A program made the position numbers and the translations under genes. A DNA stretch of 62,769 bases, the filler included, from Aduncisulcus paluster (Eukaryota), in NCBI GenBank assembly GCA_024181965.1. It is 6 parts of 6 records of this genome, joined end to end, with 100 filler letters (N's around TTAATTAATTAA, not from the genome) between each part and the next. Parts side by side here need not be neighbours in the genome. Positions count along the whole stretch, not along the records: positions 1 to 10,993 come from BQXS01011133.1; 5 more parts are not named here. One strand, written 5' to 3'. The notes below the pieces were generated by a model that saw nothing but the letters and a program-made list of their open reading frames with translations, ran no database searches and was not told the origin of the DNA. Shown here one piece after another: positions 1 through 40,229 of this stretch. Every line of letters begins with the position of its first letter. Position 1 is the stretch's first letter.

Positions 1-3000
1 TTTGTGTGCGTAATCCAGCTTACCTTCTACAGACACCTCTTGTAGCTGTGACTTGGGGATCATTGTGATATGCTCACTCTTCAAAAATGGCCGAGTTCCA
101 CCCGACATCTCCTTGTTCTTTACGAAGATTTCAAAGGACATCACTTGAGAGAACATGTCATCGCGTTCTTGTTTAATTCTAGATATTACTTCATTCTCTT
201 CCTCAATTACAGGCATTATTCTTTTTTCCAGGGAAACACTCTTCTCAACCACTGATTGTGCTGTCATTTGTTCGATAGAAGCAATTTTCTCATTGTCAAA
301 TTCCCCAACCTCTAACAATTGAACAATAAATGTTGAAAGACGATTATACGTTGAGTCAGTGTTTGAGTGATCAGAGAATTGATTATCCATAGCCTCAGTA
401 AACTTTGTCCCTTTTACCATTTTGAAGAAAACATTATTATGAAGTGATTCTTTTCTGACAATCAGGCTATTCTGGAAGGATTTACAATTGTCTTCATCAC
501 TAAATAAGTCAATAAATAGAATTCCAAGTCTTGAGCCATTACAGTTCTCCACCACTTCTCCCCATCTCTGATCTTTTGGAGCAGCAACCGCAGAGAAGAA
601 TTGAACGGACATTCCAGGACTTATCATGAGATACTTCGCATTCTTTTCTTCTTCCTCAAATCCACACATATACGAAGCGAATGGGAAAACATCCAGAGGA
701 AATGACATGTCATTCATCACAAAAGCATCAATAAATCGTTGTAATGCCACAATTGAATGAGGATCTTTGAGCGATTTCACAAGGCGTTGACTCTGCCGAG
801 TTCCAAAGGTTACAATAGAATATGGAATTTTGAAAGAGTTGAGCATGAGACAGATAGCGACAACAAATACGATCACACTATTCTTAACAGGTTTTACATG
901 TTCTTCAATGTCAACCAGGAGAACGACGGGGTGCTGCGGTACGCCTTGATATTTTCTAAATTGAAGACCAACTTGAGTCATCAAATTATCAACAATTCTT
1001 CGAGAATAACAGAAGGAACAGATTTTGTTAATATGGAGATCAGTAATCCACTCTTCATATTTGGAGCTAAACTCTTTCAAGTTAACATATTTAGAGGCAC
1101 CATACGAACCCTTTGCCTCGATAACAACCTTTTCAACAAAATCTTGCATAATCCTGGTTTCTTCAAGAGATCCAACTTTCATAGTGTCAAGATTATTTTT
1201 GAGGAATAAATACATTTCGTCAACATTTCGTTCAATTTTGGCTCTAAATCTCAGATCAGTGGCGTATTTAGCATCAACACGCTTGACATCTCTTCCAAGA
1301 GCACTCAAAGCATTACGACCAAGATGTTCTTCCTCTTCCTCTTCTTCTCCATCCCTGCGTGAAGTCAACTTCATTGCATCATCCAGTCCAATAATCCTAG
1401 TCATTTGCTCCAAACATTGTTGCTTGGCGGATTCGGATACTTTATGAACTCTGGCTACCCCCAGACCATTGGTTTGTGTGAGAACCATCACAGGTTTTGC
1501 AGTAGCTGTCTCAATCTTCCTTCTTGTTGTGTGCCCATGTTCATCGTAAGCGTGTGGGTCAGTGTGTTGATGATTAAAACGAACCTTTGGACCAGAATCC
1601 TGTCTTTGCTGAACATATTTTGCCCCTTGATGTAACAAATTTGTAAACCCATGAGCACGGTTTTGATTGGCATAGCGTTGTAAGTTTTGTTGATGAGCGA
1701 GAGATACACCACTAGGATTAGAACTTGACGCTGGAGAATGACTTGTTCCATCTGAACCAACCATATCATGATCTTCACCTTCAATAAAAGACTGGCATTC
1801 GGGATACCAAGTCTTTTCTTCTGCAAAATACTGAGAACATTCATTGTGAATCAATCGACTGACATCTTTATGGCGTTGATATGTCAATGATCTCATAGAA
1901 TGAAGAGTGTTTTGAATGGTTGTTTTTGTGAGTTCATAAAGTTTATCTGTAATAAACATTGGTAATCCATCCAAAGAACAGAAATAAAGAGTTTCAGCAA
2001 AACCAAGCATTTGTTTAATATCATCAAATGAATACAATCCAGTCTGTGTTCGAGATACCTTATCAACTCTCTTGCCTAAGGATATATATAAGTTGATATC
2101 CATATGGAAAGAGGAGATCATATCGACAAGATCAAACAATTCATTCAAAGTTGAGGAAGCATTGATTTGAGAGATTGCATTGATTATTTCATCCACTCTC
2201 TCCAATGGAGGTTTCAAATGTGAAGTCTCTCCAGTTTTCACAAAGGTAGGTATTTTAGGAATCTCAAATCCAGAAAACTCAGAATCCGATACAACAGATC
2301 CATTGACAAAATAAACATGGGTTGCAAGAGAACCACCAGAGAATACATAGGGTTTCAATCTATTGGTTGTTTCGATTCCTCGATGAATTGGTTTAAATAA
2401 ATTGATCATATCGGGCGAAATTACTTTCATTTGCCTAATGGCATGACCAATACGAGCACAATGATACGGATCAGGCGAGAAATTTTTTAGAGAACTCATT
2501 GAAATCAATCCACAAGGGGTATCACCAACCATAACATAGAATTTATCGCCATAAAATGAATGAGTCGGACTTCGTTTATATTTCAAAATGAAACCCCGAT
2601 TTGCGATTGAATCAGGTGGAATATCAACATTCATTCCCATCTTATCACCATCCCACACAGAGATCTCAAACTTATCTTGATGAGGAGGAATGCACTGGAC
2701 AGAAACAGGGCCAGATAGAGGAGTTGTTCCAGTGTTTCCAATGGTGAACACACATTCTTTTTCAAATTCGCTTGAACGCATCACGAAAAATTTGAAACGC
2801 TGAGGTTTCTTATCTTCAGCAATATATACAAGGATTGGACCAGGAGCATTATAAATATGTGCTTTGGTTATTCTCACTGAAATATCTCGTGTATACAACT
2901 TTAAAGAACCACAAATGTTAGTTCCAGATTGAATGGACATCAACCAATTTGTAAGAACCAACCCATCTTTCATGGTAACCGAATGCTTATCTGAAGCTTC

Positions 3001-6000
3001 ATTTCCAGGCTCAGTGACAACCTGGAAAATATCTTTGAGTTTTGGGAATCCTGCAGGACGCTCAAAGAATAATGCAGATCGATCAAGAGATGGATTGAAA
3101 TGAACAACACTTCCATCAATTCGACAAGTTTCCGGCACACAAATATGAATAGCATTCGGTAAAAGGGCGGTCGAAATTTTCATCACGAGTTGAGAAATAA
3201 GCCGATTGGAAGATTGATGAATGAGCTGAACACAGTGCTCCTCAGAAATTTCCTTTGGTGTTGTCACTGATTTAAAACTAAAAATATCAATCATCAAACC
3301 GTTTGAGCCTCGTTTAGCATCAATTTCCAAGGAACAATCAACAGGTGAAACAACTTGAATATAACAATCATAAGGAATCATCCCTCGAATATGGAGAGAA
3401 TAAGGGCGTATAGAATGAGAATAATCCTGAGGAATAAACGGTGAGAGATAGACAGAAATATCACTACATGAAAACTCTCCTTTTGAAATTCCAATAGATA
3501 GCAAGTCAACTTTCTCAAAACTGCTCAAACCATAAAATTCCGTTCTTTCTCTTCGGAGTGATATCTTCGGTGTTTTGAACCATCTTGAATTGAAGTTGTC
3601 ATTTTTTGACATCAGCCCATCCACAGATTTCTTTGAACGTTTTAATTGTTCCAAATCAAGAGAGCCTTTAGAATATTCTTTTTCAATTGTATATCCATCA
3701 CTCAGTTGTAAAGTTGTTTTCACTCCGTCAGAACATAAAATTTTCTGAGAAATACCTTGCCTAATTTTGGTCACAAATTCACGTGTGTTAGTCGATCTAT
3801 AAAACTCTGTCACTAAATCGAAGAAATCAATTTTAGGTTTGACAGGCTCTGGTGTCATCTTCGTTTTTGATAAGTAATTAAGGGAAACCATTTTGATTGA
3901 AACACCACTTCGTTTAGTGAGATAATAATGTAACCCATTGACACATAATAAATGATATTTCCCACTTCTGCCCGTCACATTTGTGCTATAGTCATTCTTC
4001 AGGTAATCTCCAAATATTGGGACCAATATGGATACTTTCTTTTGTTTTGCACTAACATTCAGATTATGTACTTTAAATTCATTATATACACTCCTTTGAA
4101 ACCCCCAAGAATTTAATAAAGAAGAAGAGGAAACAATTTTTATCTCCAACACTTCATCAGTGATTCCGGTCACATCGAAGTCAAATCGTACAAAGTTTAA
4201 CCTACCTTTAACTTGGTATTTCAAATGTTCCTTTTTTGGACAGAGTGAGAAAAACGGAGAAACAAATATTTTTTTCCCCTCACAACGAAATCCATCCACC
4301 TCAGGAACACTTGAATCATAATAAATATAACATTTTGCAGGACCAGTTTCACCAATCATTCGATAAATTGTGCGAAGATATCCATTTGCGGTGGCTTCAA
4401 GCTTCTCTTTCCCCAAGACTCTATCAAACTGTTTTCGTTCCTCATTGTATCTTTTCATTTCTTGAGAATAAGCATCTTTGGCCCTTAAATTGGAAACATC
4501 CTGAATTTCTTTAACCCAAGCCATTACTTTAGTTTTCCAATCGTCCATTCTACTTTTCAAATCAGCAACCTCACTCTCTTTTTTATCCAACCCTACCTTA
4601 AATGCTGCAGAAACGAGTGCATACATCTCATTTTTAACCATGGAAGCATAGAATCGTGGATATACAAAACACATAAATTTATCATCAAGATTCAAACCGC
4701 ACGAATACAAAAGACTTAAGTCCTCAAATAGTTCCATAACTTTTTCAATCATCTCATTCAGAATCTTTTTCAAGAGTTTTTCAATTTCTCTTTCCAATCT
4801 CCAGATATCTTCAACACAATTCAAAACTTCTTCGACGTGGGTTACCAAAACATTTGAAAATGAATCGATAATCATTGTATATACTTGGTATTCACGACAA
4901 GAAGTATCAGCATTCTCACCAGCGGTCAAAGCAATAACGGATAACTCGTTATTCAGAGAGGTTCTATTTTTGGCCTGGACACAATTGAGAATGTAGGTGG
5001 CAGCAATATGTTGCATGAGGTTTTTAATACTCTTGTCTCTCTGATGGGAACACAGTCCATTAAACATATGATCAAGATTGAAATCAGCTTTGATCTTCTC
5101 AAGCTCTTTCACACCGAATTTTGCAATTTGTTTGGATAAAATAAGAGGAAGAATCGAAATTCCAGTGAAATTATCAGTACTCGAAGAAGCGGATATAGTT
5201 GGTTTCAAAAAGGTTTCGAATGATGGAGACAATCCGGGGGAATATTTCTTGGATAAATAGACAAAAACGGCATTATAATGCGCCAGATCAGGAATCAAGC
5301 CTTCTGAAACAGATCTAAAAATAGACCATAATTCAGAAATAGAATATGTTTCAGCCGATTTCTTATCAGATTTGGACGCTTTGGACGGTTTTGGAGAAGA
5401 AATTGGAACAATTGTAAGACCAGAATCCATAATATCCTCATAAAACTGATCAAGAGATTCATAATCGATATCAATACAAGATATCAAGAAAGTTTTCTCA
5501 TCTGGCATGAATGATTCCCTTTCATTACAATTTTCAAACATTGAAACAAGTATTCCTACATTTTTCTTGTTTGGAATATTAAATGGTAAGGTTATTCCCG
5601 CGGGGGAATTCAACACTTCAATTGGTAATATATCCAAATTGCTATAAACGAATTCAATGCATGCCTGAGCAAACAAACTTCTCGACAAGAAATCATACAC
5701 AGGTCTTGGAGAACCATCTTTATAAATCATCCAACCAAAACCCTTGACCCGCCCAATATAATTCTTGAAGTTCTTGACACACAAAATATCGACCCAAGTC
5801 ACAAAAGCCTCAAGCAATTGTGCCAACATGTCAGGATTACGCCCCATGAAAGGCAATGATACGATTCTAAGGAATATTCCACATCCTTTCTTGAAATTGA
5901 CTTCAGAAATAATAGATTTCGAAGGTTCTTTGAATGATGATTGGACATAATTGATAAATTGAGAAACAATAATCTGGTGCTTTCCTGAGGTTCCAAGTTG

Positions 6001-9000
6001 TTTTCTAACTTGATCCACGACACGGGCAACATGACGTAAATAGAATGATACAAATTGAAGGAATTCATGATTAAAAAATCTCTTTTCTTTCAGAGGTTGA
6101 TATTTGATCCCTTTGGTGACAACATCAATGATGAATTGCCAACAATCAGGAATCTTTCTTTTACCTTCAGACAAAAGCATGGGAGCTTCAAATTTATGAA
6201 GTTCACACAATTGCTCAAAATACTTTAGTTGATACTGATATTCTATTTTTATCTCAGATGCATCAACTTCAAAATCAGGGTCTCGGAGTTGTTTAATCAA
6301 CAGATCCAAATTATGAGCCATTCCTTCAAAATCTTGCCAATTCGACCCTTTTCCTTTTGCATTTTTCTTACATTTCTTTTGCAATTGGAAAAAATCTGAG
6401 ACGAATTGATTCTTTTCCTCTTCGATAGCGGCTTCTTCGATTCGATTTTGAACTCCAAGAGTGAAATCATTTATATATTTCAACCATTCATCATGAATTG
6501 AATCCAAGTCAATCCGAGGTCCAAATACTTCCCGAAATGAATTGTGCACAATTTCCAAAATATCACGAATTCTCTTCATTCTTGACTTTGTGCGTTCCAA
6601 AGAAGATGTGTCATCTTTCTCTGAATACATTATTTTATCCCAAGTGTCAACACTGTTCTCTTGTTTTGCAATAGTGAATAATCTATTCCATTCAGAAATT
6701 AATTCACAATCAGGTTGGTTACGCCTATTAGCTTCACAGGCACAAATTGCGTGTTTTAGAGAACTCACCTTTTTCTTATCCAACTTATTGAAAAAGATAC
6801 CCATAAGTTGATTCTGATGCAGCTGTTTATAAATGGCCATGAAATACAATTTCCTTTGAATAATATCAAATGACGATTCAATACAAGATCTAAAACAGTC
6901 GAAATACTCAGGTTTGAATAATACCATTGTCAACAAACATGGTCGAGGAATTGGGGATTGGATAAAAATAGAACAATCTTCAGATTCTAATGAATGGTCA
7001 GGTTGACATTCATTATTGAAAATGGGGAATAATAATGATCTTGAAGGAACAATACTTTCAAAGTTTAGACCCGGATTAGCTTCAGAATCTTCTTCAATCT
7101 TGATGGATTTCGCCACAAAATTATCAATTCTCTGAGAAAGTTTCTGTCCGAGTAAATCGATTTCATACAATATCGTTTGACAAATTTTGACAAAGTTTTG
7201 AGGAATAATACGTTTGTTCGACTTTCCGAGATAGGCATTTCGTAAACTCATTTGCTTAGAATTTGGAGCCGCAGTGATGAACATTATGTCAAAAATGGTC
7301 ACACTAGATCGTGGAAGAAAAACAACGACACTGTTTGAGTAAGGATCAGTGTTCTTTCTAAAATTAGAAATATCGAGATTGGAAAGAATTATCCTCATAG
7401 ATTTCCCCAAATATTGCGAACGCTTCAGAATCCGGAATTGAGGTGCAAGTTTTATCAAATAATGGCAAATTGAAGAAATTTGAGGAAAGAATTCTGGCTT
7501 CACAAAGTTATTCAATTTTGATGATCGTTTCTGAATAAATACCTTATTCATCATGAATAACAATGTCATACAGAACTGATTGAATCCCATTCCTTCCCGA
7601 ATGATATCAATAAAGAAATCCCTTTCGGTGAGAAACTGTAAGTCTCCAAAAATAGATGTATCATTGAGAAAGAGGGCAGAAATGATATTGCACACGATTT
7701 GAAGGAACTTTGCAGATGTATTATTCACACTTTGTTGCCTCAGATGGAACATTTCAGGATTCAAGTAATCTCCAGATTCAATATCAATGGTCTTGGATAA
7801 AATATGGTAAGCATTTCTGTAGATATTGGAAAACATTATACTTGGACAAGAAGAAGAAGAAGCGGAAGAAGATAAAAACCCTCTGATATCTTGAATGGAA
7901 GGAAAAAGTGAAGGAACAATTCTTTTATCAGAATCCATAATGAAAGAATCAATAATGTTAACNNNNNNNNNNNNNNNNNNNNCAGATGTATTATTCACAC
8001 TTTGTTGCCTCAGATGGAACATTTCAGGATTCAAGTAATCTCCAGATTCAATATCAATGGTCTTGGATAAAATATGGTAAGCATTTCTGTAGATATTGGA
8101 AAACATTATACTTGGACAAGAAGAAGAAGAAGCGGAAGAAGATAAAAACCCTCTGATATCTTGAATGGAAGGAAAAAGTGAAGGAACAATTCTTTTATCA
8201 GAATCCATAATGAAAGAATCAATAATGTTAACAATATGGGGAAGATTATGATGATCCATATTATCGCAATAATAATCGAATACGGTGTAGAATCTACACA
8301 AAGAAGTGTGAATATCAGTGAGTTTGGCCGACCTTTTCTGACTAGTCAATGCCATGGATGGAGTTGGGTTGGCCAAGTGCATACAACAGTGAGTAACACA
8401 ATACAATTCATTCATTTTGGCCCGAACAATGCGGACATTCAATTCATCATGGGCCACACAGGAGATTGCATTCTTCAAAGCGATAAACAGTTTGGCTGGT
8501 ATTATAGAAAGTTCATCCTTTTCTTCTTCGCAAACTTTGACATCTCCGATCATATCAATTTTCTTCCTCTTGAGAAGACGCTTGAGAAGAGCAAATCTAT
8601 TCCGGATATCAGCAGCAATCAAATCTTCATTTTCAGAAGCATTGGAAAAATCAGCCAAAAGAGCAAGATGAGTGCGAGAAGAAAGTTGAATTTCAGGAGA
8701 TGTCGTATTTTGATATTCAATAAACTTTGAAATATAGGCAAAACATAACAAAGATTGCTCATACGAATAAGACTTCAAAAGTTCTTTGAAACATAAGGCT
8801 TCAACAAATGAAATGCCCATCGATAAATCGTACAAATTATCCTCATTCTCAAATGAAAATCCAATTTTAGACATAGGATCCAGAGTTTTGATAATGAAGT
8901 CACTATCTTGAGAAACGCTCATATCACCGTAATACCGTTTCAAAACGAAATACAACATTTGGGCACAATCACGATCAGGATATTCAGCACATAATATCTT

Positions 9001-10992
9001 GAATGAATTCAAAGTATGGAAAAATGCTCTCACACTGAATTTTTGTTTGTCTTCAAGTGACACTGATTTTTTGGACCAATGTTTTCTAAATTTAACAAAG
9101 CTTTGAGCCAACACACTTGAATAAGCATGAATTTCGTTTTTGGAAAGGTGAAGAAGATCGTCTTGAGACAAAACTCTTATGGCGATATCACAGAGGTCAG
9201 ACTCGTTGGAATAGAAATCCTCAGTCGAAATCAAGACACATCTGGACTGGAAACTAGCTGGAATAATGGTAGCATTGGCACTGTATGGATCAACAGTCAT
9301 AAAAAGTCTAAAATCAGGATGAATGGGAATTTCTCCATTCTCGATTTTTAGTCGCACTCCAGGCTGTTCTTTCAGAAAAACAGTATTTGCGTCCTTCTCG
9401 TAGAGATCAAGGCGCATATCTTCCTCTGTTAAACTGTTTAGACGTTCAAATACATCAGACTTGGCAGCCTGGAGAGATTCCAAAGCAACCCAATCTCCAT
9501 TCTTCATCGCAGAAATCAAGGGAGATTCAACAAATCCAATATTCATAACGGAACTTGAGTTATTCTGGATGAATTTAGCATTTTTGAACAACGGACTCAA
9601 GGATTCCAAATGTTTCAGAGCAAATTTCCTTGCCGTAACATTTCCACCAAGTAATTTATACAAATGACGACGAAGTTTCTTCAATTTTTTGCCATATGTT
9701 TGGATATTGAGACAATCAAAATGTGATTCTTCTTGTTCATCTTTTTCTGAAGTTGTTGACGAGGAAGGAGTAATGATCTGCTTGATGGCAGTTTGAATAG
9801 TTTGTCCGAGATCGAGAGCAGATTTGGAAACAACAGGTTCATTCCTTCCAACGACATTCCCAACTTCAGAGTCACAGTTAAGCTGAATAGTATGGAGATT
9901 CTTTCGACATAACTTGGCCAAAATCTGTAATATTTTAGACTTGCCAGTTCCAGACATTCCAGATAGGATAATTGCCCGCTGTGTGGCTAGAATTGAAGAT
10001 ATTTTCTCAGTGACCTCAAGTTGTTTCTGTCCAAGTGTGTGAGCTAATGGACGTTCAAAAGTTGGAATATCTTTCTTTTCTAAGGCAGATGACATTACCA
10101 TTTTGGTTGAATGTATCCGACGGGCCTCTTCTTCCTCTTCTTCACTTTCACTGAATACAGCGAATGCATCTTCCTCTTCTTCCTCCTCCTCTTCCTTCTT
10201 CTGCATTACTTGAAGCACAGTTGCATGACCATCATCATGATCTTGCTCTGAAGTCCTCAATCCAGGGTAAATATTCACCGAACCACAGTTGATGATAGAA
10301 TTCCCAATTTGGACGAGTCTTTGTCCATTTGAAATGAGTTCTTTCACCGAGATCTGAGCATTCGAATCCTCAACGGCCTGGACATCTTTGGGAACATCCG
10401 CAATCTTCAGATCACGAACAAGGTTCTGAATAAGGTTTTTACGTGTGAATGAGTCAAATTTGGCAAACAAAACAAGAGATACGATACTCATAAAGGAAGG
10501 CGGTGAGCTAGATGTTCGAGTTGCTTGATACAATTCAATGACTTTCAATACTTCTCTCAGGGAGTAAGAGTTAATTAAACCATGTTCCCTGCTCTTTTCA
10601 AGGGACATTACAAATGCCGTGGTCATAATACTGAACATTTCGGTGACATTTTCCCCCCCAATTCGAGATTGTATGAGTTCACTCATGATATCTGTCATTT
10701 CTTTAAGGGAATAGTTGTTGATGGGCAAAAATATCACAGAGTCACGAACAAATCGTGGAATCTCCAGTCTAGCACCACTATATTGCATCGGATTGAATGT
10801 AGCAATGGCCAACACATGAGAACAATCCACCAGTGATCCATTTGGTAAGGTAATGAATTTGACTCTATTCGATGAAAAAAGGGGAAGGAAAACATCCATC
10901 ACTTCTCGAGGAGCTAAGTTGAATTCATCCAAGACCAGTAGAAGTTTCGGAGGTCTTTGATACTTCCTAAAGTCACATTCTTGATATTCCAT
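1..10992 (-). CDS. Giant midasin-like AAA+ ATPase with degenerate VWA domain (partial at both ends, >=3,570 aa after collapsing a 270-nt gap duplication)
   Basis: Absent from the ORF track because the frame runs off the window without a stop. Manual translation gives LLLVLDEFNLAPREVMD...IATFNPMQYSGAR (Walker B/sensor 1, ~10770-10950), Walker A GMSGTGKS (9937-9960), FVESPLISAMKNGDWVALE...FERLNSL...IHPDFRLFMTVDP (midasin-type AAA module), and VWA-like VVLLVDIEEH...IPYSIVTFG...VKSLKDPHS...LQRFID (~720-930). All segments I translated share one frame. Confidence 0.85.
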   Translation of the reverse strand, partial: MEYQECDFRKYQRPPKLLLVLDEFNLAPREVMDVFLPLFSSNRVKFITLPNGSLVDCSHVLAIATFNPMQYSGARLEIPRFVRDSVIFLPINNYSLKEMTDIMSELIQSRIGGENVTEMFSIMTTAFVMSLEKSREHGLINSYSLREVLKVIELYQATRTSSSPPSFMSIVSLVLFAKFDSFTRKNLIQNLVRDLKIADVPKDVQAVEDSNAQISVKELISNGQRLVQIGNSIINCGSVNIYPGLRTSEQDHDDGHATVLQVMQKKEEEEEEEEDAFAVFSESEEEEEEARRIHSTKMVMSSALEKKDIPTFERPLAHTLGQKQLEVTEKISSILATQRAIILSGMSGTGKSKILQILAKLCRKNLHTIQLNCDSEVGNVVGRNEPVVSKSALDLGQTIQTAIKQIITPSSSTTSEKDEQEESHFDCLNIQTYGKKLKKLRRHLYKLLGGNVTARKFALKHLESLSPLFKNAKFIQNNSSSVMNIGFVESPLISAMKNGDWVALESLQAAKSDVFERLNSLTEEDMRLDLYEKDANTVFLKEQPGVRLKIENGEIPIHPDFRLFMTVDPYSANATIIPASFQSRCVLISTEDFYSNESDLCDIAIRVLSQDDLLHLSKNEIHAYSSVLAQSFVKFRKHWSKKSVSLEDKQKFSVRAFFHTLNSFKILCAEYPDRDCAQMLYFVLKRYYGDMSVSQDSDFIIKTLDPMSKIGFSFENEDNLYDLSMGISFVEALCFKELLKSYSYEQSLLCFAYISKFIEYQNTTSPEIQLSSRTHLALLADFSNASENEDLIAADIRNRFALLKRLLKRKKIDMIGDVKVCEEEKDELSIIPAKLFIALKNAISCVAHDELNVRIVRAKMNELYCVTHCCMHLANPTPSMALTSQKRSAKLTDIHTSLCRFYTVFDYYCDNMDHHNLPHIVNIIDSFIMDSDKRIVPSLFPSIQDIRGFLSSSASSSSCPSIMFSNIYRNAYHILSKTIDIESGDYLNPEMFHLRQQSVNNTSXXXXXXXVNIIDSFIMDSDKRIVPSLFPSIQDIRGFLSSSASSSSCPSIMFSNIYRNAYHILSKTIDIESGDYLNPEMFHLRQQSVNNTSAKFLQIVCNIISALFLNDTSIFGDLQFLTERDFFIDIIREGMGFNQFCMTLLFMMNKVFIQKRSSKLNNFVKPEFFPQISSICHYLIKLAPQFRILKRSQYLGKSMRIILSNLDISNFRKNTDPYSNSVVVFLPRSSVTIFDIMFITAAPNSKQMSLRNAYLGKSNKRIIPQNFVKICQTILYEIDLLGQKLSQRIDNFVAKSIKIEEDSEANPGLNFESIVPSRSLLFPIFNNECQPDHSLESEDCSIFIQSPIPRPCLLTMVLFKPEYFDCFRSCIESSFDIIQRKLYFMAIYKQLHQNQLMGIFFNKLDKKKVSSLKHAICACEANRRNQPDCELISEWNRLFTIAKQENSVDTWDKIMYSEKDDTSSLERTKSRMKRIRDILEIVHNSFREVFGPRIDLDSIHDEWLKYINDFTLGVQNRIEEAAIEEEKNQFVSDFFQLQKKCKKNAKGKGSNWQDFEGMAHNLDLLIKQLRDPDFEVDASEIKIEYQYQLKYFEQLCELHKFEAPMLLSEGKRKIPDCWQFIIDVVTKGIKYQPLKEKRFFNHEFLQFVSFYLRHVARVVDQVRKQLGTSGKHQIIVSQFINYVQSSFKEPSKSIISEVNFKKGCGIFLRIVSLPFMGRNPDMLAQLLEAFVTWVDILCVKNFKNYIGRVKGFGWMIYKDGSPRPVYDFLSRSLFAQACIEFVYSNLDILPIEVLNSPAGITLPFNIPNKKNVGILVSMFENCNERESFMPDEKTFLISCIDIDYESLDQFYEDIMDSGLTIVPISSPKPSKASKSDKKSAETYSISELWSIFRSVSEGLIPDLAHYNAVFVYLSKKYSPGLSPSFETFLKPTISASSSTDNFTGISILPLILSKQIAKFGVKELEKIKADFNLDHMFNGLCSHQRDKSIKNLMQHIAATYILNCVQAKNRTSLNNELSVIALTAGENADTSCREYQVYTMIIDSFSNVLVTHVEEVLNCVEDIWRLEREIEKLLKKILNEMIEKVMELFEDLSLLYSCGLNLDDKFMCFVYPRFYASMVKNEMYALVSAAFKVGLDKKESEVADLKSRMDDWKTKVMAWVKEIQDVSNLRAKDAYSQEMKRYNEERKQFDRVLGKEKLEATANGYLRTIYRMIGETGPAKCYIYYDSSVPEVDGFRCEGKKIFVSPFFSLCPKKEHLKYQVKGRLNFVRFDFDVTGITDEVLEIKIVSSSSLLNSWGFQRSVYNEFKVHNLNVSAKQKKVSILVPIFGDYLKNDYSTNVTGRSGKYHLLCVNGLHYYLTKRSGVSIKMVSLNYLSKTKMTPEPVKPKIDFFDLVTEFYRSTNTREFVTKIRQGISQKILCSDGVKTTLQLSDGYTIEKEYSKGSLDLEQLKRSKKSVDGLMSKNDNFNSRWFKTPKISLRRERTEFYGLSSFEKVDLLSIGISKGEFSCSDISVYLSPFIPQDYSHSIRPYSLHIRGMIPYDCYIQVVSPVDCSLEIDAKRGSNGLMIDIFSFKSVTTPKEISEEHCVQLIHQSSNRLISQLVMKISTALLPNAIHICVPETCRIDGSVVHFNPSLDRSALFFERPAGFPKLKDIFQVVTEPGNEASDKHSVTMKDGLVLTNWLMSIQSGTNICGSLKLYTRDISVRITKAHIYNAPGPILVYIAEDKKPQRFKFFVMRSSEFEKECVFTIGNTGTTPLSGPVSVQCIPPHQDKFEISVWDGDKMGMNVDIPPDSIANRGFILKYKRSPTHSFYGDKFYVMVGDTPCGLISMSSLKNFSPDPYHCARIGHAIRQMKVISPDMINLFKPIHRGIETTNRLKPYVFSGGSLATHVYFVNGSVVSDSEFSGFEIPKIPTFVKTGETSHLKPPLERVDEIINAISQINASSTLNELFDLVDMISSFHMDINLYISLGKRVDKVSRTQTGLYSFDDIKQMLGFAETLYFCSLDGLPMFITDKLYELTKTTIQNTLHSMRSLTYQRHKDVSRLIHNECSQYFAEEKTWYPECQSFIEGEDHDMVGSDGTSHSPASSSNPSGVSLAHQQNLQRYANQNRAHGFTNLLHQGAKYVQQRQDSGPKVRFNHQHTDPHAYDEHGHTTRRKIETATAKPVMVLTQTNGLGVARVHKVSESAKQQCLEQMTRIIGLDDAMKLTSRRDGEEEEEEEHLGRNALSALGRDVKRVDAKYATDLRFRAKIERNVDEMYLFLKNNLDTMKVGSLEETRIMQDFVEKVVIEAKGSYGASKYVNLKEFSSKYEEWITDLHINKICSFCYSRRIVDNLMTQVGLQFRKYQGVPQHPVVLLVDIEEHVKPVKNSVIVFVVAICLMLNSFKIPYSIVTFGTRQSQRLVKSLKDPHSIVALQRFIDAFVMNDMSFPLDVFPFASYMCGFEEEEKNAKYLMISPGMSVQFFSAVAAPKDQRWGEVVENCNGSRLGILFIDLFSDEDNCKSFQNSLIVRKESLHNNVFFKMVKGTKFTEAMDNQFSDHSNTDSTYNRLSTFIVQLLEVGEFDNEKIASIEQMTAQSVVEKSVSLEKRIMPVIEEENEVISRIKQERDDMFSQVMSFEIFVKNKEMSGGTRPFLKSEHITMIPKSQLQEVSVEGKLDYAHK
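7713..8232. repeat. Assembly artefact: 250-bp duplicated overlap around 20-N gap
   Basis: 7713-7962 matches 7983-8232; the 270-nt offset preserves the reading frame. Confidence 0.95.
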
Positions 10993-10993
10993 T

Positions 10994-11093
10994 NNNNNNN
11001 NNNNNNNNNNNNNNNNNNNNNNNNNNNNNNNNNNNNNTTAATTAATTAANNNNNNNNNNNNNNNNNNNNNNNNNNNNNNNNNNNNNNNNNNNN
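10994..11093. other. Artificial contig spacer (N44-TTAATTAATTAA-N44)
   Basis: Six-frame stop linker in a 100-nt N block; the same structure occurs five times. Confidence 0.97.
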
Positions 11094-11121
11094 GGGCTTA
11101 AACTTTATCTAAATAACATAC

Positions 11122-11180
11122 CCAACTCGAAAAGAACAAAAATGCGAACCTATAACCCTCCAAATTTCATCGTCGGACAT
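11122..11180 (-). CDS. MAK16: MAK16 (60S biogenesis factor) exon 1; remainder off-contig
   Basis: ATG at 11180 reads MSDDEIWRVIGSHFCSFRV, matching the conserved Mak16 N-terminus (MSD..IW..I...FCS). It is followed directly by a GTATGT donor at 11121. Confidence 0.85.
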
Positions 11181-11608
11181 TTTGTGCTCTCAAATCATCG
11201 AAAAAGCTTGGTTGGATTGGATCGTTTTGTAGAACCCGCCATTCTTAATAAATATTTATTTCAACTCGTTATATTGCAATATTAGATATTATGATACAAG
11301 ATATTAACGACTCATATCATGTTAAGGCTGATATGAATGATGAAGATTTTTCCACATTGAATATGGATAGCTGATGGTTAAAAAAATCATATCCCCAATA
11401 GTTGGTTTTGCGATTAAAATAAATCAAACCAATAAGTCGGAATAACTCGGTCAATTGTTCAGATACAGATGATTCGATCAAGCATCCAAAAAATTCCCTA
11501 TTGACCGTTTTGTTGAATAAGGAATTAATTAATTTATTATTTTATATTTTTTATCTTCGAATCCATTCCAATTTTTAATTTATTTTGTGTAAATATCTTG
11601 TTTGAACA

Positions 11609-14600
11609 ATGCTAATTACCCATCCCCCTACTCTTCGTATTTTAAGTGCAGGATCTGTAGATCTTGCTCCTGTTGCAGTTTTAGAAAGTGATACTGATGG
11701 AACAGCATTATTTAATTGTCCAGAAGGAACACAGCGTCTATTTAATATCGTGAAATCGAAACTGGCCAGTGTTAATGATATTTTCCTTAGTCATGTATCA
11801 TCCCAAACTCTCCTTGGAATGCCTGGTTTGTTTTTGACACAACTTATGGGAGCTTCCTCCCAACCCGGTGCACAGGCCAAAGAAGATGCAGGTATCCCTC
11901 TCCTATCTCCTCGAGTCTGGGGTAATTGTCCAAAAGAATCCCCCCAATACAAGTTAATAACGCGTATGATGTCGGTTACTGCCCATCCTGGTAGTGTAAA
12001 ATGCATTGATCTCTCTGTCAATAGTATTGTCGCCAAGCCTTCCCTTGATGTCACTGAGAGTGTCAAGAACCAGGATATCGATTCATTATATTCTGAAATC
12101 AAGAAACAATATAAGTTAAACAATGAAGTTTCAACAACTATTCATAAGGGAACCAAAATTACTCCAATTATTGTTACTCGAATCGTTCCAGGATTAAAGG
12201 ATGATTCTGTTGCCGTATGTGACCCGACAGAATTCAAAGATGATAGAATCTTTAAGATTGTTTCGACCATTGTTGGATGGAGAATTGATATCCCATCCCT
12301 TCAGGGAAAATTTGATGGAAAGCGTGCAAAATCTCTCGGTGTTTCTGGTAGAAATTGTGGTAAGTTGATTGCTGGTGAGTCTGTCCCTGGTAAAGATGGC
12401 ATTACTGTTCATCCGAGTGATGTAGTTTCCCCTCCCACTCCTATCCGCCCCATTATTCTCTTGACAAATGTCTGGGATAGTATTGAGAGAGTGATGTGGA
12501 GTGAATCTCTTGAGGATGGAAATTCTATCTGCAGACGTGAGGTACAGAGAGTGTATGAAGAATACATGGGAGGTGACAGTGAGCTTGAATTGCCATTGTC
12601 CCTATCTGATTCATCATCTTCTTTCCCTTCTTCTCCCATCAGCCCTAGTTCCTTCACGCTTGCCCCTCTCGTTGTGCGTTTATCAAACAATCCAGAACCT
12701 CGTGATTCCACCTCATTCTCCTCATGGATTAAAGAGACCGAGTCGATATCTGAACATTGCATCCATTTTATCGGCAAGGAATACTGCACACAAAGGAGTA
12801 GAGTAATTGGTGAAGAAGAAGAAGAAGGAGATGAAGAAGAGACAAGAGGAAATCCTTATTCTTCGATGAACGATCTCGTTAAGTTGTGTGTTTCTCCTGA
12901 TATTCTTGATTCTCCATTGGGGACCCCTTCCCATTGCCCTTCATTTTCATTCTATGATTTGCAATCAATCTTCCCCTTTTCTCGCTTTTTACATACAGCT
13001 GTTGATCAGTTTGCTGGAATATCGTCCGAATATAACATTCTCTATCCATTGAGCGAGCGTATGAGAGATTGGTCCTCAATTGGTGTGACACCGATCGATA
13101 TGGTTATTCACACTGCCGATGAAAAAACAAAGATTTCCCTCCCAAGGCATTGCGATATCTGTGTTTCATTGTCACTACGGGGAAGAAAGAAGTCCGTTGT
13201 TGAAGATGTGATTGCACTCCCCGATGGGTATGGAGTATCCATAGTTTGTGATGAAGGAGTATGGACAGATGCACATGCATTCTTCGACGGAAGGAGGAAA
13301 GAGAAAGAGAAGGCAAAGAAGAACGGTGGGAAAAAGAAATCAAAGCAAACCAAGAAATCCCCGAGTAATCAAACTGAAGTTGCGTCGATAAAACAAGAGT
13401 TGGATTCCTCAAAGCTTATTCCAGAAAAAGATGTATTGTCGGATGCTGATGTTTATAGTATGTTATCTGACAAATGCAAATTGGTGTCTAAATCAGATAC
13501 TTGTGCAAAACCAAGTGTTGATGCATCGATTACAATGACATCTCTCGATCCCATTGTCATTCTACCTCTTGGTACAGGTGCTGCAATGCCTAGCAAGTAT
13601 CGTAATGTATCGAGTATGCTTGTATGCATGAAATCCAAGCCACACGCGTCTGATGATGATTCTGAACCCTCCCATTCTGTCTTCATGGTCGATTGTGGAG
13701 AAGGTGCACTTAATCAACTCCAAACCCTCTTCTCTCAGCATCAGCTCTGCTCTATTTTGGTATCTCTCCAAGTTATCTTCATCACTCATCCACATGCAGA
13801 TCATTTACTGGGTCTTTGGAGTCTAATCAGTGCCCGAAGAGAGGCCTTTACACTGCTTGGCAAGCCCTACGTTCCTCTTTGTATCGTCTGCAGTGTCCCA
13901 TGCCAACGTCTCGTCAGAATGTCACTCAGAGTTGATGAGGAGAGATGCATTGGATCTGAGAAAGATGTTGTATTCATGCATCCCGTGGCTTTTTTGCCCA
14001 AGATTGAATCCATGAAAACGTGTATTACATCACATTCTTCTGAATCCCCTTCCAAAACCATCTCCTCGAATCCCATTTCCGTGTACACACTCGATTCTCT
14101 TCTCCAAATGTCTAACTCTGAGTCGTTTAGATACCGTTGTTATGGTGGAACAGTGTGGGTTCAGCAAGACAGTTCAGGGAAAACTGTGGCTGGAATGTGT
14201 GAGCCTGAAGAAGGGATGAGCATGTCAGAGTGGGAAAAGGTGAAAGATATCGCCATCAAATGGCATCAAAAGGAATTAGATACTTTGTATTCATCATATC
14301 CTTCCTTTTCATTATTCGTCTCTTCCTTGGTGCAATCTTTTACCATGGTTCCTGTGAACCATTGTGCAGAAAGCTATGCTCTGGTTTGTGAGGGGGATAA
14401 TGTCGTCCTTGGATGCAGTGGCGATTGCATGCCATGCGAAAGCTTTGTAAGGGAGATGAGACGAAAGGGAAAGCGGACAGAGGACTGTCGTGTTGAACAC
14501 CAGAAGGGTGAAGAGGAAGAATTGCCTTACCTTGTATGTGTCCATGAGGCTACCTTGAATCCAGGCATGGAAGACATGGCCCTCGACAAGAGCCATGCGA

Positions 14601-14995
14601 CTGTTACGCAAGCGATGCAAGTAGCTTTATTATGTGAATGCAATGCTCTTTTACTCACTCACTTCTCACAAAGATACGGAAGAGGATTCCCCGATACTTC
14701 TATTCTTTCTCAGACAACAACTCTCAAAGAAATGCTCCTTGAGCTCGGAAAAGAGCGTCATAAGCAGGAAGATTCTTTCGATTTGGTGGTCCCCATCGAA
14801 TTATCGTGGTTTGATCTGGTGAAGCAAGGAATATACAGACAAGATATAAGAAATATTCATGAAATATCCAAAGAAAGAGGTGCTTTGACAATTGCTTCTG
14901 CTCTTGACCTCTGTATTTATACAAAGGATACAATGAATGTCTGGGAAAAATCTACAAAGGAATTGGGAGAGTTGTTGAGGATCTTAGATCTCTAA
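11609..14995 (+). CDS. ELAC2: Long-form tRNase Z (metallo-beta-lactamase fold)
   Basis: N-terminal LFNCPEGTQR pseudo-motif, exosite GKFD...LGV...GKLIAGE, LGTGAAMPSKYRNVSS, VDCGEG, HPHADH (HxHxDH), HEAT and LTHFSQRY. Confidence 0.95.
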   Translation: MLITHPPTLRILSAGSVDLAPVAVLESDTDGTALFNCPEGTQRLFNIVKSKLASVNDIFLSHVSSQTLLGMPGLFLTQLMGASSQPGAQAKEDAGIPLLSPRVWGNCPKESPQYKLITRMMSVTAHPGSVKCIDLSVNSIVAKPSLDVTESVKNQDIDSLYSEIKKQYKLNNEVSTTIHKGTKITPIIVTRIVPGLKDDSVAVCDPTEFKDDRIFKIVSTIVGWRIDIPSLQGKFDGKRAKSLGVSGRNCGKLIAGESVPGKDGITVHPSDVVSPPTPIRPIILLTNVWDSIERVMWSESLEDGNSICRREVQRVYEEYMGGDSELELPLSLSDSSSSFPSSPISPSSFTLAPLVVRLSNNPEPRDSTSFSSWIKETESISEHCIHFIGKEYCTQRSRVIGEEEEEGDEEETRGNPYSSMNDLVKLCVSPDILDSPLGTPSHCPSFSFYDLQSIFPFSRFLHTAVDQFAGISSEYNILYPLSERMRDWSSIGVTPIDMVIHTADEKTKISLPRHCDICVSLSLRGRKKSVVEDVIALPDGYGVSIVCDEGVWTDAHAFFDGRRKEKEKAKKNGGKKKSKQTKKSPSNQTEVASIKQELDSSKLIPEKDVLSDADVYSMLSDKCKLVSKSDTCAKPSVDASITMTSLDPIVILPLGTGAAMPSKYRNVSSMLVCMKSKPHASDDDSEPSHSVFMVDCGEGALNQLQTLFSQHQLCSILVSLQVIFITHPHADHLLGLWSLISARREAFTLLGKPYVPLCIVCSVPCQRLVRMSLRVDEERCIGSEKDVVFMHPVAFLPKIESMKTCITSHSSESPSKTISSNPISVYTLDSLLQMSNSESFRYRCYGGTVWVQQDSSGKTVAGMCEPEEGMSMSEWEKVKDIAIKWHQKELDTLYSSYPSFSLFVSSLVQSFTMVPVNHCAESYALVCEGDNVVLGCSGDCMPCESFVREMRRKGKRTEDCRVEHQKGEEEELPYLVCVHEATLNPGMEDMALDKSHATVTQAMQVALLCECNALLLTHFSQRYGRGFPDTSILSQTTTLKEMLLELGKERHKQEDSFDLVVPIELSWFDLVKQGIYRQDIRNIHEISKERGALTIASALDLCIYTKDTMNVWEKSTKELGELLRILDL

Positions 14996-29904: not shown

Positions 29905-32900
29905 CTAAAAGAAACTATAAGGTCTCTTTTCTCCAGAGTATCTTCTCTCACATGCCCTTCCATACCACCCTTCTTTGCACCTGCATGCCCGAGATCCATC
30001 AGCAATGGTAGCACATCCATACGAAGACTCGGGGCTGCACCAACAGATGTCACGCTCACAGAACAGACCACCCCACCCAACCTTACAGTCACAATAAAAG
30101 GGAGGCTCATTCTTGGATGGATCACCAGCCACACATGAGCCATGGTCAAAGCATTCCGATGAGGCTCTATTCTGACCATATCCAATCGCACACATGTTCC
30201 ATTGACACGCATCACCACTGAAGCCCCATGCACACAGACAGGAATGAGAAAGGGGATTACACACTCCAAGACCAGAACATGATACATCGGTGGAGGGATT
30301 GGTTGGACAGATACTCTGACATGCAGTTCCATACCATCCATCAATACAGGCAGAATAAATGTCACCATTAGCATCAATCACACACTGTCTATCTGGAATA
30401 TCCAGGCATTCAGAATACAATACTTCATCCATGGACTCACAAACAANNNNNNNNNNNNNNNNNNNNCAAAGCATTCCGATGAGGCTCTATTCTGACCATA
30501 TCCAATCGCACACATGTTCCATTGACACGCATCACCACTGAAGCCCCATGCACACAGACAGGAATGAGAAAGGGGATTACACACTCCAAGACCAGAACAT
30601 GATACATCGGTGGAGGGATTGGTTGGACAGATACTCTGACATGCAGTTCCATACCATCCATCAATACAGGCAGAATAAATGTCACCATTAGCATCAATCA
30701 CACACTGTCTATCTGGAATATCCAGGCATTCAGAATACAATACTTCATCCATGGACTCACAAACAAATAAATCTGAGCCGGATTGTGGATAATGTTTAAG
30801 ACTAAGCTCAAAACAACCAAGAACATAGGTTGAGGATTCCCAAGGTTTTATGCATTGTGTATTGGAATACACTGATGCCAAGGGGCATTGAGAGCAATAT
30901 GCATCATTCTGATTCGAGATATTTAGCTTCGCCAATATATTGAAAAGAGATATAAAATAGTCAGCTTCAATGTTACATATCATATTGGAACTAATATCAA
31001 GGAATTCAAGGGAGTCTTTCAATGAAAACAATGGAGATGGATCAGAGATATTATTATGGGAGAGGTCGACAGAAGAAAGGGATTGTGAGTGGATGAGAAA
31101 ATGGATAGAAGATAAATCACACTCAGAGGCAATCAAAATATGTAAATTAGGAAAGAGTTCCAATTGAGAAAGACTATTTTTAGAAAGGATTACTCCAGAC
31201 ATTTCAAGTTCTCTCATTGAATAATTAGAAACCAGTGTGGAATCAACAGAAAAGAGAGGAGAAAGATCAGAGATGCTTGTTCCACCAATCTTAAGGGTTT
31301 GAAGGGAATAATATCCATGTTCTGATGCCAACTGAGATATAGAGAGATTATTACTGATATCTAGATATTCAAGGGAAGGAAAAGAAGCAAAGAAATCAAC
31401 ATCAGAAATACTATTGCAAGAAATATCGACATACTCAAGACTATAAAGGGTAGAAATCGGAGAAATATCTGAAAGATCAGGATTATTTGACAATTCAAGG
31501 TGAGTGATTTGTCGAAGATGTTCAATTCCTCTAATATCAGACAGAGAAAAAGAAGAATATGATATTGTAACGGTTGAAGGGATATTCTTGAGAGCCACAA
31601 CAGAAATTTGAGGATTCCAATCAGAATATCCTAAAATAGAATGAGAAATATAATATCGAAGTTGCTCATCAATGACAACATCTACACAGATAGCCATATC
31701 AGTGATATCTGGATCATATCGACATTCCTGACCAAACGAACATCCTCCATCACATGTAAACGATTCCCCATGAAGAGAATCAATGCATTCAAACTCATAA
31801 GGAGACAAATATCGAGTAAAAGAATGTGAAGAACATACAATGTTCCACTCGTCACTGCCAAAATACGACTCAGAGCATATCTTGTTATCAACGAAAGGCA
31901 ATATATCATCCATCAACTCAGAACAATAAATAGAACAATCTTGAGAAACTTGAGTATAATCAAGCACAAACATTTCATTGGAATAATTGTGGAATTTCTT
32001 ACTCAGATTCTCAATATCATCTTTCCCACCACATATTCTATTGGCACTTATGTTTACATTCATCAATTTCTCCAAGAAGTAAAGTGTGGACACGTCAGAA
32101 AGCGAACATCCACTGATATCAAGAGATATAATGTTCTCAAGACCATATTGGGAGATCCCATGAGCATCGTAGATCCCTGGATTATCACTAATATTGATAT
32201 ATTCCAACGATTCCTGACTGAAACGAAGGTTAGGAATAGAATCTAAAGCACATCCACTCAAATCTAGGTACTCAAGAGATAGAAATAGGGATATATTTGA
32301 AATACCACGGATTATACCATTGGAACCAAGGGAAAAATGGGTTAAAGATGCCATTTGTATCGAGCTAAGACTGGAAATATCATTAACGCCAGTGTTAGCA
32401 AGGAAAAGTCTCTCAATATTGAATAAGTGGTATGAAATATGCACTGAAAATCCCTCAGAAAGGATGTTAGAGTTATTATATGCCAACAAAGTCGCAATGG
32501 AGGTTGGCAAAAGATCACAAGCATCAATATCTGTCGGGAAGGACACATATGTTGAGCTAATATCAAGATAAATAAGATTATCAAGGAGGTAGAGAGAAGG
32601 AAGAGATATAATTGGATTAGACGAAACATCCAAGTGTTCCACATTACTTAATGTTTGGACATAAGTAATATCATCAATGATATTTCCTGAAAGATCAATC
32701 CAAGAGATTGCTGAGAGATGCTCAATTCCTTCGATAGATGCAATTCCTTGCCCGGAACACTCAAGATTTGTTGGATAATCAATACTATAGTTGAGTGTCT
32801 TAAGGGAAGCAACACTGAACATCACAATCTCCAGACCATCGATCTCAGAAGTTTGAATATCACTTGATTGTGGAGGAAATAACTCAGAAACACACGAATG

Positions 32901-38900: not shown

Positions 38901-40042
38901 AGATATTCAATATCAGGAAAATCCATGTCCAGATCCCAAATATCACATCCACTCGCATGCAATTCAATAATGTTGGACAACTCTAAGGAATTGACGAGAA
39001 TACTTGTGTTATCAATGTTCATCATCGAAAGCCAAGACATCTCATTCAACTCGGAAGCATCCTCCAAGAGTGGGTTATCAGACAAATTAACACCAAATAT
39101 ACCCGTAAATTGTGAAATACCAGTGATATTCGTGAGATTGTTCCCACTTAAATCAAGGATACCTTCATACTCAGTGACAGATGACTCCTGCAAATCACAT
39201 GATTCACCAAGATCAAGAGCAGAACATATAGCTTGATAAAATTCCTCATCTTCGAAATATATTGAACATATGTTCCCATAAAATCCACTAGAACAGGAAC
39301 AAACAAACCCAGAAGCACCATCTGAGACACACTGGCCTTGATTATCCATACAGCCCGAACATTGGTCAGGATACTCACATATTCCATCAATAACAACAGA
39401 TTCACTGGCATTTGGACATTCACTAAGGCAAGTATCATTGTAACCACAAACATAACCATCAGAACAATCAGAGCAGATGGGGAAACATCGTTCAGAAGAA
39501 TTACTCTCAAAGGAATATCCACTTGGACATACATATACAGAATAATAAAACGTAACTTCGGTCCATTTTCCATAGATATGTGCAGTAATAAGCGCATCTT
39601 GGTAAATTTCAAAATTAAGGGTCATTTTCCCCAAAAGAGTCCTTGCAACTGTATAATTAGAAAGTTGGTATTCTTCTTCGACACATTCATCAGTTTCTGT
39701 CATCGGAAGTGTTGTGTTAGCAAGGGCAACAGTATCATCAGCCCAAGCAAGAGCCATATTTAAATGAGCAAAAGCAATATTATAATCGTGATCACAATAT
39801 CGTGTTTTAACAGTTGAATGGGCAATTCCAGCAAGATGATATGTAGGAAGCGCACCGTCGATATCAATAGAATAAGAGGCTTCAATTTCACCAATACTAT
39901 GCCAATCGGCATCATATGTAACTCTTATAGTGTTTGATTGATCAGAAATAGAAGAATAAATGGGATTGTAAACGACATAGGCAAAAGAAGAGGATGGGAA
40001 AGTCCATAACGTCAGGATAAGAAATAATGACACAGTGGACAT
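29905..40042 (-). CDS. Giant secreted LRR/Cys-rich super-repeat protein with EGF-like domains (~3,160 aa once gap duplications are collapsed)
   Basis: Three ORF pieces join in frame after removing 335-nt and 320-nt gap duplications. Signal peptide MSTVSLFLILTLWTFPSSSFA; internalin-like LRR blocks (L..LDIS.N.I.D.SPL); seven GGCx[YF]GxxC modules; EGF-like repeats near both ends. Confidence 0.9.
30147..30766. repeat. Assembly artefact: 300-bp duplicated overlap around 20-N gap
   Basis: 30147-30446 matches 30467-30766. Confidence 0.95.
37585..38234. repeat. Assembly artefact: 315-bp duplicated overlap around 20-N gap
   Basis: 37585-37899 matches 37920-38234. Confidence 0.95.
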
Positions 40043-40229
40043 TAAAAAAGTTGCTGAAAATGGAAAATAATTCTTGATATTCCCCATAAGATGATATGAA
40101 ATCATCTTATCAACGCCAAAAAGCAAAATCCAAAACATCAAATCAAAAAAAAAAAAAAGAAATCTTCATAATGATGATGAAATGATTGGTCCAATATTTA
40201 TTTGAAGTACAATTTGAGCTAATATCTGA

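Follow-up and report, generated by a model that had tools for sequence, protein, structure and literature searches.

The question raised by this locus is whether the giant AAA+ protein encoded in it is the midasin (MDN1/Rea1) of Aduncisulcus paluster or a paralogue with a different job. The window, that is the whole stretch of 62,769 nucleotides (filler included) that was analysed, begins with the entire contig C11133 (positions 1–10993), which belongs to a eukaryotic assembly of 29.6 Mb in 23,235 contigs. On the minus strand positions 1–10992 form a single frame of 3,664 codons with zero stops, and the remaining five frames contain 179–384 stops apiece within bases 1–12000. The lone minus-strand frame which the initial annotation had seen in the first 11 kb is thus real, and it amounts to 3,574 codons when an assembly artefact is subtracted. 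We assign the following features to the contig and its border:

1–10992, minus strand: open frame from the middle of a gene that spans at least 5,950 aa, neither end being closed (from overlaps at the 5′ side and a run contig reaching past base 1)
1–303, minus strand: spacer past VWA1; the paralogues continue from here to VWA2, a GIFT-like domain and often VWA3
304–1050, minus strand: VWA1, degenerate, with DIEEH (912–898) for DxSxS and SPG for [TS]DG (family profile)
2293–4332, minus strand: region placed like the tandem Ig-like β-sandwiches of the family, by position and sequence pattern in the target
4333–9015, minus strand: long linker, probably mostly helical as judged from its sequence, with approximate boundaries
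7713–7982, no strand: assembly artefact (duplicate of 250 nt plus 20 N; 90 spurious codons), from self-comparison and run contigs
9016–10053, minus strand: AAA6, with Walker A GMSGTGKS (9960–9937), a long helix-2 insert, Walker B LES without the catalytic Glu, and an arginine finger (Pfam and midasin chains)
10423–10992, minus strand: C-terminal half of AAA5, with an intact Walker B LLVLDE (DE 10929–10924), sensor-1 ATFNP and the lid; the Walker A is on contig C320 (family profiles)
10994–11093, no strand: artificial separator of N44, TTAATTAATTAA and N44; genes past the separator are not genuine neighbours

The artefact is an exact 250-nt duplicate with a 20-N gap at 7963–7982. Contigs of both public runs omit these 270 nt and otherwise match with 0 differences, the two runs being from one sample and possibly the source of the assembly itself. 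Since the run contigs skip the 270 nt, 90 codons are false and the shorter length of the frame is the real one. In this assembly further loci (L053, L040–L046) also show gaps of 20 N between exact duplicates, as well as frameshifts within GAA-rich repeats, and the public annotation splits long genes there.

The ATG at 10992, at the contig edge, encodes an internal Met and is not a start codon. Extension of the contig in both directions, which had been proposed as a check, was successful at the 5′ side only. Contig C320 overlaps the 5′ end of the target gene over 487 nt with no mismatch, and contig C12392 in turn overlaps C320 exactly over 266 nt. Pieced over these three contigs the target reaches at least 5,950 aa and has six AAA modules and a plausible start on C12392; its 5′ part contains a frameshift within a GAA-rich repeat of C12392 (in the assembly sequence). 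At the 3′ side no overlapping contig was found, the own contig being the sole match of a DNA search with window positions 1–250. A run contig reaches 2,931 nt beyond base 1, leaving space for about 975 further codons, and the whole protein would have roughly 6,500–7,000 residues. Five orphan tail contigs (C5634, C5562, C11806, C11930 and C11945) hold VWA2, GIFT-like and VWA3 pieces. They were rejected as the 3′ end of the target, as they have no overlap with it and a GC3 of 0.49–0.59 versus 0.28–0.36 in the target; their GC3 resembles that of a fragmented fourth paralogue (0.45–0.51). A VWA2, a GIFT-like domain and a VWA3 are therefore predictions for the target, because its own 3′ end was not seen.

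A separate canonical MDN1 was sought in the same genome and is indeed present. Contig C10794 carries an MDN1-type gene with an open stretch of 5,507 aa, two midasin lids (AAA_lid_5, AAA_lid_7) and an acidic tail with 50–75% D+E. As the contig ends inside this acidic tract, the terminal MIDAS of the gene could not be located. Besides this gene the genome has at least four copies of the family to which the target belongs, the target included. The further copies, at least three, are on C10984, on C10888/C10823 (two contigs joined by a 275-nt identical stretch, a link that probably spans an intron), and in one fragmented gene richer in GC3. Two of the three are deposited at NCBI as hypothetical proteins of Aduncisulcus paluster. 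The fragmented fourth paralogue lies in overlapping near-identical pieces (C10256, C12132, C4865, C8314, C5249 and the five orphan tail contigs), suggesting alleles or recent copies.

A search with a paralogue tail gave three matches among 4,348 candidates, including a Blastocystis protein and an ENA protein. With AAA1–3 of the ENA protein as query we obtained 351 matches, of which the best 120 were taken for sorting: 97 belong to the family, 19 are yeast-type MDN1 and 4 are other midasin-like proteins. Organisms named among the family matches listed are Tritrichomonas foetus, T. musculus and Trichomonas vaginalis. In all, at least 98 giants were recovered, including proteins of Tritrichomonas, Trichomonas and Blastocystis, besides the copies in Aduncisulcus paluster, so the wider protist family of giant AAA+ proteins that had been put forward as a possibility does exist, its hosts being oxygen-avoiding protists. 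The common layout is a variable N-terminus, six AAA modules, a helical linker, Ig-like repeats (modelled on the member P0007), a degenerate VWA1, a VWA2 with intact MIDAS, a GIFT-like domain and usually a VWA3. Among the 98 proteins 77 extend to VWA2, with sizes of 4,905–7,310 aa, and the GIFT-like profile matches 69, with seven more recognized by eye; a third VWA motif is found by pattern in 62. The 21 proteins without a VWA2 match are mostly shorter and are probably truncated models. Like the family, the target has its degenerate VWA1 about 2,500 aa downstream of AAA6.

This shared layout bears on whether the locus could be a decaying midasin duplicate, a pseudogene or an assembly chimera. 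Degenerate motifs and the frameshift on C12392 would fit such a reading, and no RNA holder is on record. However, a stop-free stretch of 10.7 kb is spanned by a single run contig that shows no difference, the layout is common to 77 distant proteins, and the degeneracy is patterned and family-wide, so we regard decay or chimerism as very improbable.

Other sources were scanned for members. A metagenome scan yielded 17 loci, one being a family member and 16 having MDN1 as best match. In locus L085 the family gene stands alone on an 18-kb contig of 21% GC, capped at positions 1–45 by telomere-like CCCCAAT repeats; rumen-ciliate nanochromosomes have this form, and the contig may be one. Similar contig sizes, with one gene per contig, are frequent among the ENA rows, and ciliates are therefore likely a fourth lineage. 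The viral contigs scanned gave one weak locus (L075) matching no family profile, and in prokaryotic genomes, searched with one pattern, 3 of 60 stretches were confirmed, one being a MoxR protein of a myxobacterium with two modules. The other two, L102 and L103, are partial family frames from AAA3 that adjoin genes of bacterial type in two bacterial MAGs, on short contigs; they are probably assembly chimeras, with gene transfer as the lesser possibility. Four short contigs of the Aduncisulcus assembly (C1556, C3092, C5773 and C10433; GC3 0.13–0.52) each encode one bacterial-looking AAA protein, which suggests bacterial contamination.

Family profiles place the six AAA modules of the target in midasin order, the window starting just upstream of the Walker B of AAA5. 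Of the two midasin-type AAA modules claimed for the frame the type is therefore right and the count is not, as the window has half of AAA5 plus AAA6. The AAA6 region matches Pfam AAA_5 (E=1.5e-15), and midasin chains are the best solved relatives of the AAA region in the window (E=1.7e-33). The dynein heavy chain domains DHC_N, AAA_6-9 and the stalk (MT) gave no match above cut-off in the target pieces, with the true dyneins of the genome scoring strongly.

The distribution of catalytic motifs over the ring is peculiar. In the target the DE of Walker B is present in AAA1 and AAA5 only and AAA3 has EN; AAA1 has the Walker A variant GPTGTSKS and AAA2 has lost the Walker A Lys. The DE of AAA1 is found in 20/20 family rows, in all three own copies and in all four rows of a sister group (P0104, P0117, P0125 and P0108, from Hondaea, Mesostigma, Adineta and a JGI assembly, several of them annotated as midasin). 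The AAA1 Walker A Lys is likewise retained in 20/20 family rows, the partner arginine finger of AAA2 in 19/20 and the DE of AAA3 in 19/20; own and sister rows also have a DE in AAA5. In modules 2, 4 and 6 no family, own or sister row has a Walker B DE, and the arginine finger is mostly retained. Thus live and helper modules alternate in the ring; in the target AAA1 and AAA5 each precede an even module that has lost the catalytic Glu and retains the arginine finger. MDN1 differs: its rows (n=6) have DE in AAA2–5 in 6/6 and none in AAA1 or AAA6, and the sections on the ring in the published Rea1 account give complete catalytic motifs for AAA2–AAA5 (PMC11603028).

We built a ring tree from 1,366 concatenated columns and 33 rows (20 of the 98 family proteins, three own copies, four sister rows, 5 of the 19 yeast MDN1s and the own MDN1). 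Under LG+G4 the target, its paralogues and the family group together with an SH-aLRT of 100, and the own MDN1 joins the yeast MDN1s, also with 100; a quick tree of 24 rows under LG+C20 gave the same grouping with 100. In an AU test with 20 rows, placing the three own copies in one clade with MDN1 was rejected (p=1.4e-5). A tree of 72 modules puts every target module beside the family modules of the same position and the MDN1 modules apart; odd and even modules split as in midasin, with support of 81–85 on the question of an independent triplication of the ring. In ring and module trees the sister group joins the family against MDN1. All trees are unrooted and their MDN1 outgroup is narrow, consisting of yeasts and the own copy. 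The phylogeny that had been suggested as a check hence sets the target apart from the MDN1 orthologues, and together with the separate gene on C10794 it makes the target a midasin paralogue, as originally supposed, rather than the MDN1 of this genome.

The degenerate VWA domain near the contig end was correctly recognized in the initial annotation. A VWA1 profile from which the own-genome rows were left out matches window positions 304–1050 (E=1.1e-12), hhalign gives 95.6% (E=1.2e-8), and DIEEH stands as described in place of the MIDAS DxSxS, at the position of the VWA-type strand 1 motif. The frame, said to stay open for well over 100 codons beyond this domain, continues for about 100 codons past the profile match to the contig end at base 1. 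VWA1 and VWA2 are homologous (hhalign 94.8%). Only 10 of the 77 family proteins have a full MIDAS motif in VWA1, whereas Dx[ST]x[ST] is retained in 77 of 78 aligned VWA2s. Thus the domain is degenerate as claimed, and the notion of a protein lacking a MIDAS does not hold for the relatives, in which VWA1 heads a tandem pair. Because the DIEEH domain is the first VWA of such a pair, an intact MIDAS probably lies past the contig end.

In the paralogues on C10984 and C10823 VWA2 is followed by the GIFT-like domain. An AlphaFold model of C10984 (mean pLDDT 69, 15 alignment rows) retains the pre-MIDAS element of midasin in VWA2, and this domain superimposes on the Rea1 MIDAS with Z 15.9 (rmsd 2.7, 175 aligned), a score which other VWAs tie. 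The VWA2 family profile also matches the MIDAS region of 18 of 19 yeast MDN1s (26–38 bits). The second domain of the model resembles the IFT52 N-domain (Z 16.2, rmsd 2.9, 198 aligned) and also OST48 and ThuA-like proteins. GIFT-like domains have an inactive class I glutamine amidotransferase fold, and since the alignment contains no conserved nucleophile Cys we read this one as a binding domain. Pfam detected neither VWA1 nor VWA2 nor the GIFT-like domain, and searches with the VWA1 region returned itself only (1 of 1,337 candidates) or itself plus two own-genome paralogues; with the paralogue tail the ESM Atlas gave a VWA-containing cluster at 0.94.

One alternative is that the protein serves mainly as a structural scaffold whose ring is vestigial and senses nucleotide, and that it does not produce force to remodel clients, much as RNF213 uses its dynein-like core for regulation. 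A complete Walker B is missing in four of the six target modules, and a platform for binding would fit the three VWAs, the Ig-like repeats and the dead enzyme fold. The invariant Lys and DE of AAA1 with the AAA2 arginine finger, and the pre-MIDAS element kept in VWA2, argue against it and make a pure scaffold improbable.

Past the first 100 aa of the linker no similarity was detected even to the paralogues of the same genome (about 2,400 aa compared), and the family linker profiles gave no significant match to the target. The very long linker described at the outset is present, the distance from AAA6 to VWA1 being about 2,580 aa, yet this is just slightly above the sum of the Rea1 linker (about 1,700 aa) and acidic tract (about 600 aa) as given in the domain description of PMC11603028. 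The absence of a long acidic tract is clear: in the C-terminal half the maximum D+E fraction per 200-aa window is 0.19 versus 0.47–0.56 in 19 yeast MDN1s.

For the region before VWA1 a model of family member P0007 (pLDDT 76) shows three or more Ig-like sandwiches; the alignment of the target to this region of the family is below significance, and the ESM Atlas returned nothing usable with the β-region. In Foldseek chains of the ciliary central apparatus are nearest to the P0007 β-region, with E 5.9e-11 at best. Together with the likeness of the GIFT-like domain to IFT52 and OST48 this would suit an assembly chaperone of cilia, basal bodies or Golgi trafficking coats. However, VIA gives the β-region a Z of only 8–10, level with cadherins and MSP domains, ciliated model organisms are absent from the named rows among the matches listed, and Blastocystis, which is not known to have flagella, carries a member. 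We consider such a chaperone unlikely.

The N-termini of the family are variable. A kinase Pfam domain is found in 13 of the 97 rows among the matches listed, other members have long charged tracts, and residues 1–165 of the Blastocystis member P0006 form two ubiquitin-like domains. A ubiquitin-like domain is the ligand type of midasin's MIDAS, and in P0006 both are on one chain. These domains, the midasins as nearest solved relatives and the midasin-type MIDAS of VWA2 could point to a second factor in ribosome biogenesis, derived from midasin by duplication and subfunctionalisation, whose task would be to pull a ubiquitin-like assembly factor from pre-ribosomes. But the genome has its canonical MDN1, the D/E tract is absent and the pattern of live sites differs, and an essential single-copy factor would hardly come in multiple fast-diverging copies with ends exchanged. 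A ribosomal role thus appears distinctly unlikely.

With a probability of about 0.6 we therefore read the target as a single-chain, six-module midasin paralogue of the MoxR clade that acts as a non-ribosomal, ATP-driven remodeller gripping through MIDAS. With midasin it shares the six MoxR-clade modules in one chain, the odd/even kinship and the long linker, and its relatives share the MIDAS VWA with the upstream element. It differs in that the target lacks the D/E tract and the family has Ig-like repeats, two or three VWAs and a GIFT-like domain past the linker; in that the catalytic Glu is confined to odd modules; in being multi-copy with variable N-termini and a separate clade; and in that the first VWA of the target is internal and degenerate, unlike the single terminal VWA of MDN1 with its intact MIDAS. 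The sister group shares the odd-live/even-dead ring and the absence of a D/E tract, and in the gene models at hand, possibly incomplete, it has no match to VWA1, VWA2 or the GIFT-like domain. RNF213/mysterin is comparable in architecture, as a giant one-chain six-AAA protein with some dead modules outside ribosome assembly and transport. RNF213 is not known to contain a VWA, and its RING/RZ ligase module gave no Pfam match in the target pieces scanned, which do not include the 3′ end. NorQ-NorD, RavA-ViaA and an archaeal locus resemble the family in combining a MoxR-clade ATPase with a vWA co-chaperone and with domains of the Ig-like and GldG/DUF4350-like types; in the present case a single eukaryotic chain contains all these parts, and no signal peptide or membrane anchor was noticed. 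In the archaeal arCOG01314/DUF4350 locus, as listed in part of the survey PMC5898192, MoxR, Ig-vWA and DUF4350/GldG-like parts are separate genes.

The differently wired ring and the several gripping domains suggest that the protein probably remodels other targets than midasin does, and its job is presumably a different one from the removal of Ytm1 and Rsa4 from pre-60S particles by MDN1, as far as sequence can tell. In the Rea1 mechanism described in PMC11603028, a ubiquitin-like domain is held by the MIDAS via Mg2+ and the MIDAS docks onto the ring, and the MoxR-vWA pairs, as outlined in sections of PMC7159879, offer a second model. By analogy with Rea1 and NorQ-NorD, VWA2 or VWA3 would grip an acidic client residue via Mg2+ and the VWA module would dock onto the ring; ATP hydrolysis at two or three alternating sites could then pull the client, resulting in stripping or remodelling. 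VWA1, the Ig-like repeats and the GIFT-like domain may be a non-catalytic scaffold replacing the acidic tether of midasin, the swappable N-termini (kinase, ubiquitin-like, charged low-complexity) may regulate or localise, and the third VWA may be interchangeable.

Among possible roles we rate a fast-evolving surveillance or defence function highest, if only tentatively, because of the copy number, the divergence of the linker, the swapped ends and the patchy spread; it is weakened in that the analysis turned up no effector domain such as a ligase, nuclease or protease. A role in the cytoskeleton or in trafficking comes next and seems doubtful: the ciliary flavour of two folds backs it and the Blastocystis member weakens it. 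More speculatively, the family and the Hondaea/Mesostigma/Adineta clade might be a further old eukaryotic lineage of single-chain six-AAA proteins in addition to dynein, midasin and RNF213, with live and dead modules alternating in the ring. In anaerobic protists it might have expanded and moved between gut lineages as a modular remodeller that evolves fast and serves surveillance or defence, its exchangeable MIDAS domains selecting clients and its fused kinases or ubiquitin-like domains acting as a switch.

In the open full-text literature searched on midasin paralogues and MoxR-VWA systems no description of the family was found, a mention in a supplement or an older AAA+ classification being possible, and it is apparently new. 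The usual view of midasin is that of a ribosome motor with one purpose and one gene copy. The family is an additional branch with an odd-module firing pattern and a multi-VWA tail, and protist annotations as midasin mix different proteins. In PMC3495828 dynein and midasin are taken to have arisen from a six-module MoxR ring by a split that happened once. The family offers a direct test case for a midasin-like ring with two or three active sites and for MoxR-VWA machines outside the eukaryotic nucleolus, and several copies occur in Trichomonas and Tritrichomonas, organisms with existing genetics and proteomics.

The remainder of the window (11609–62083) holds ordinary genes from unrelated contigs, namely a tRNase Z (11609–14995) and genes for a PQ-loop protein, a DNAAF11-like, an Sfi1-like protein, an alpha-amylase, a Band 7 protein and an LRR protein. 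At 30378–40165 on the minus strand two long leucine-rich-repeat/cysteine-rich frames have common duplicated sequence around an N gap (37900–37919); they are probably a single surface-protein gene of more than 3,000 aa, cut by an artefact similar to that in the target.
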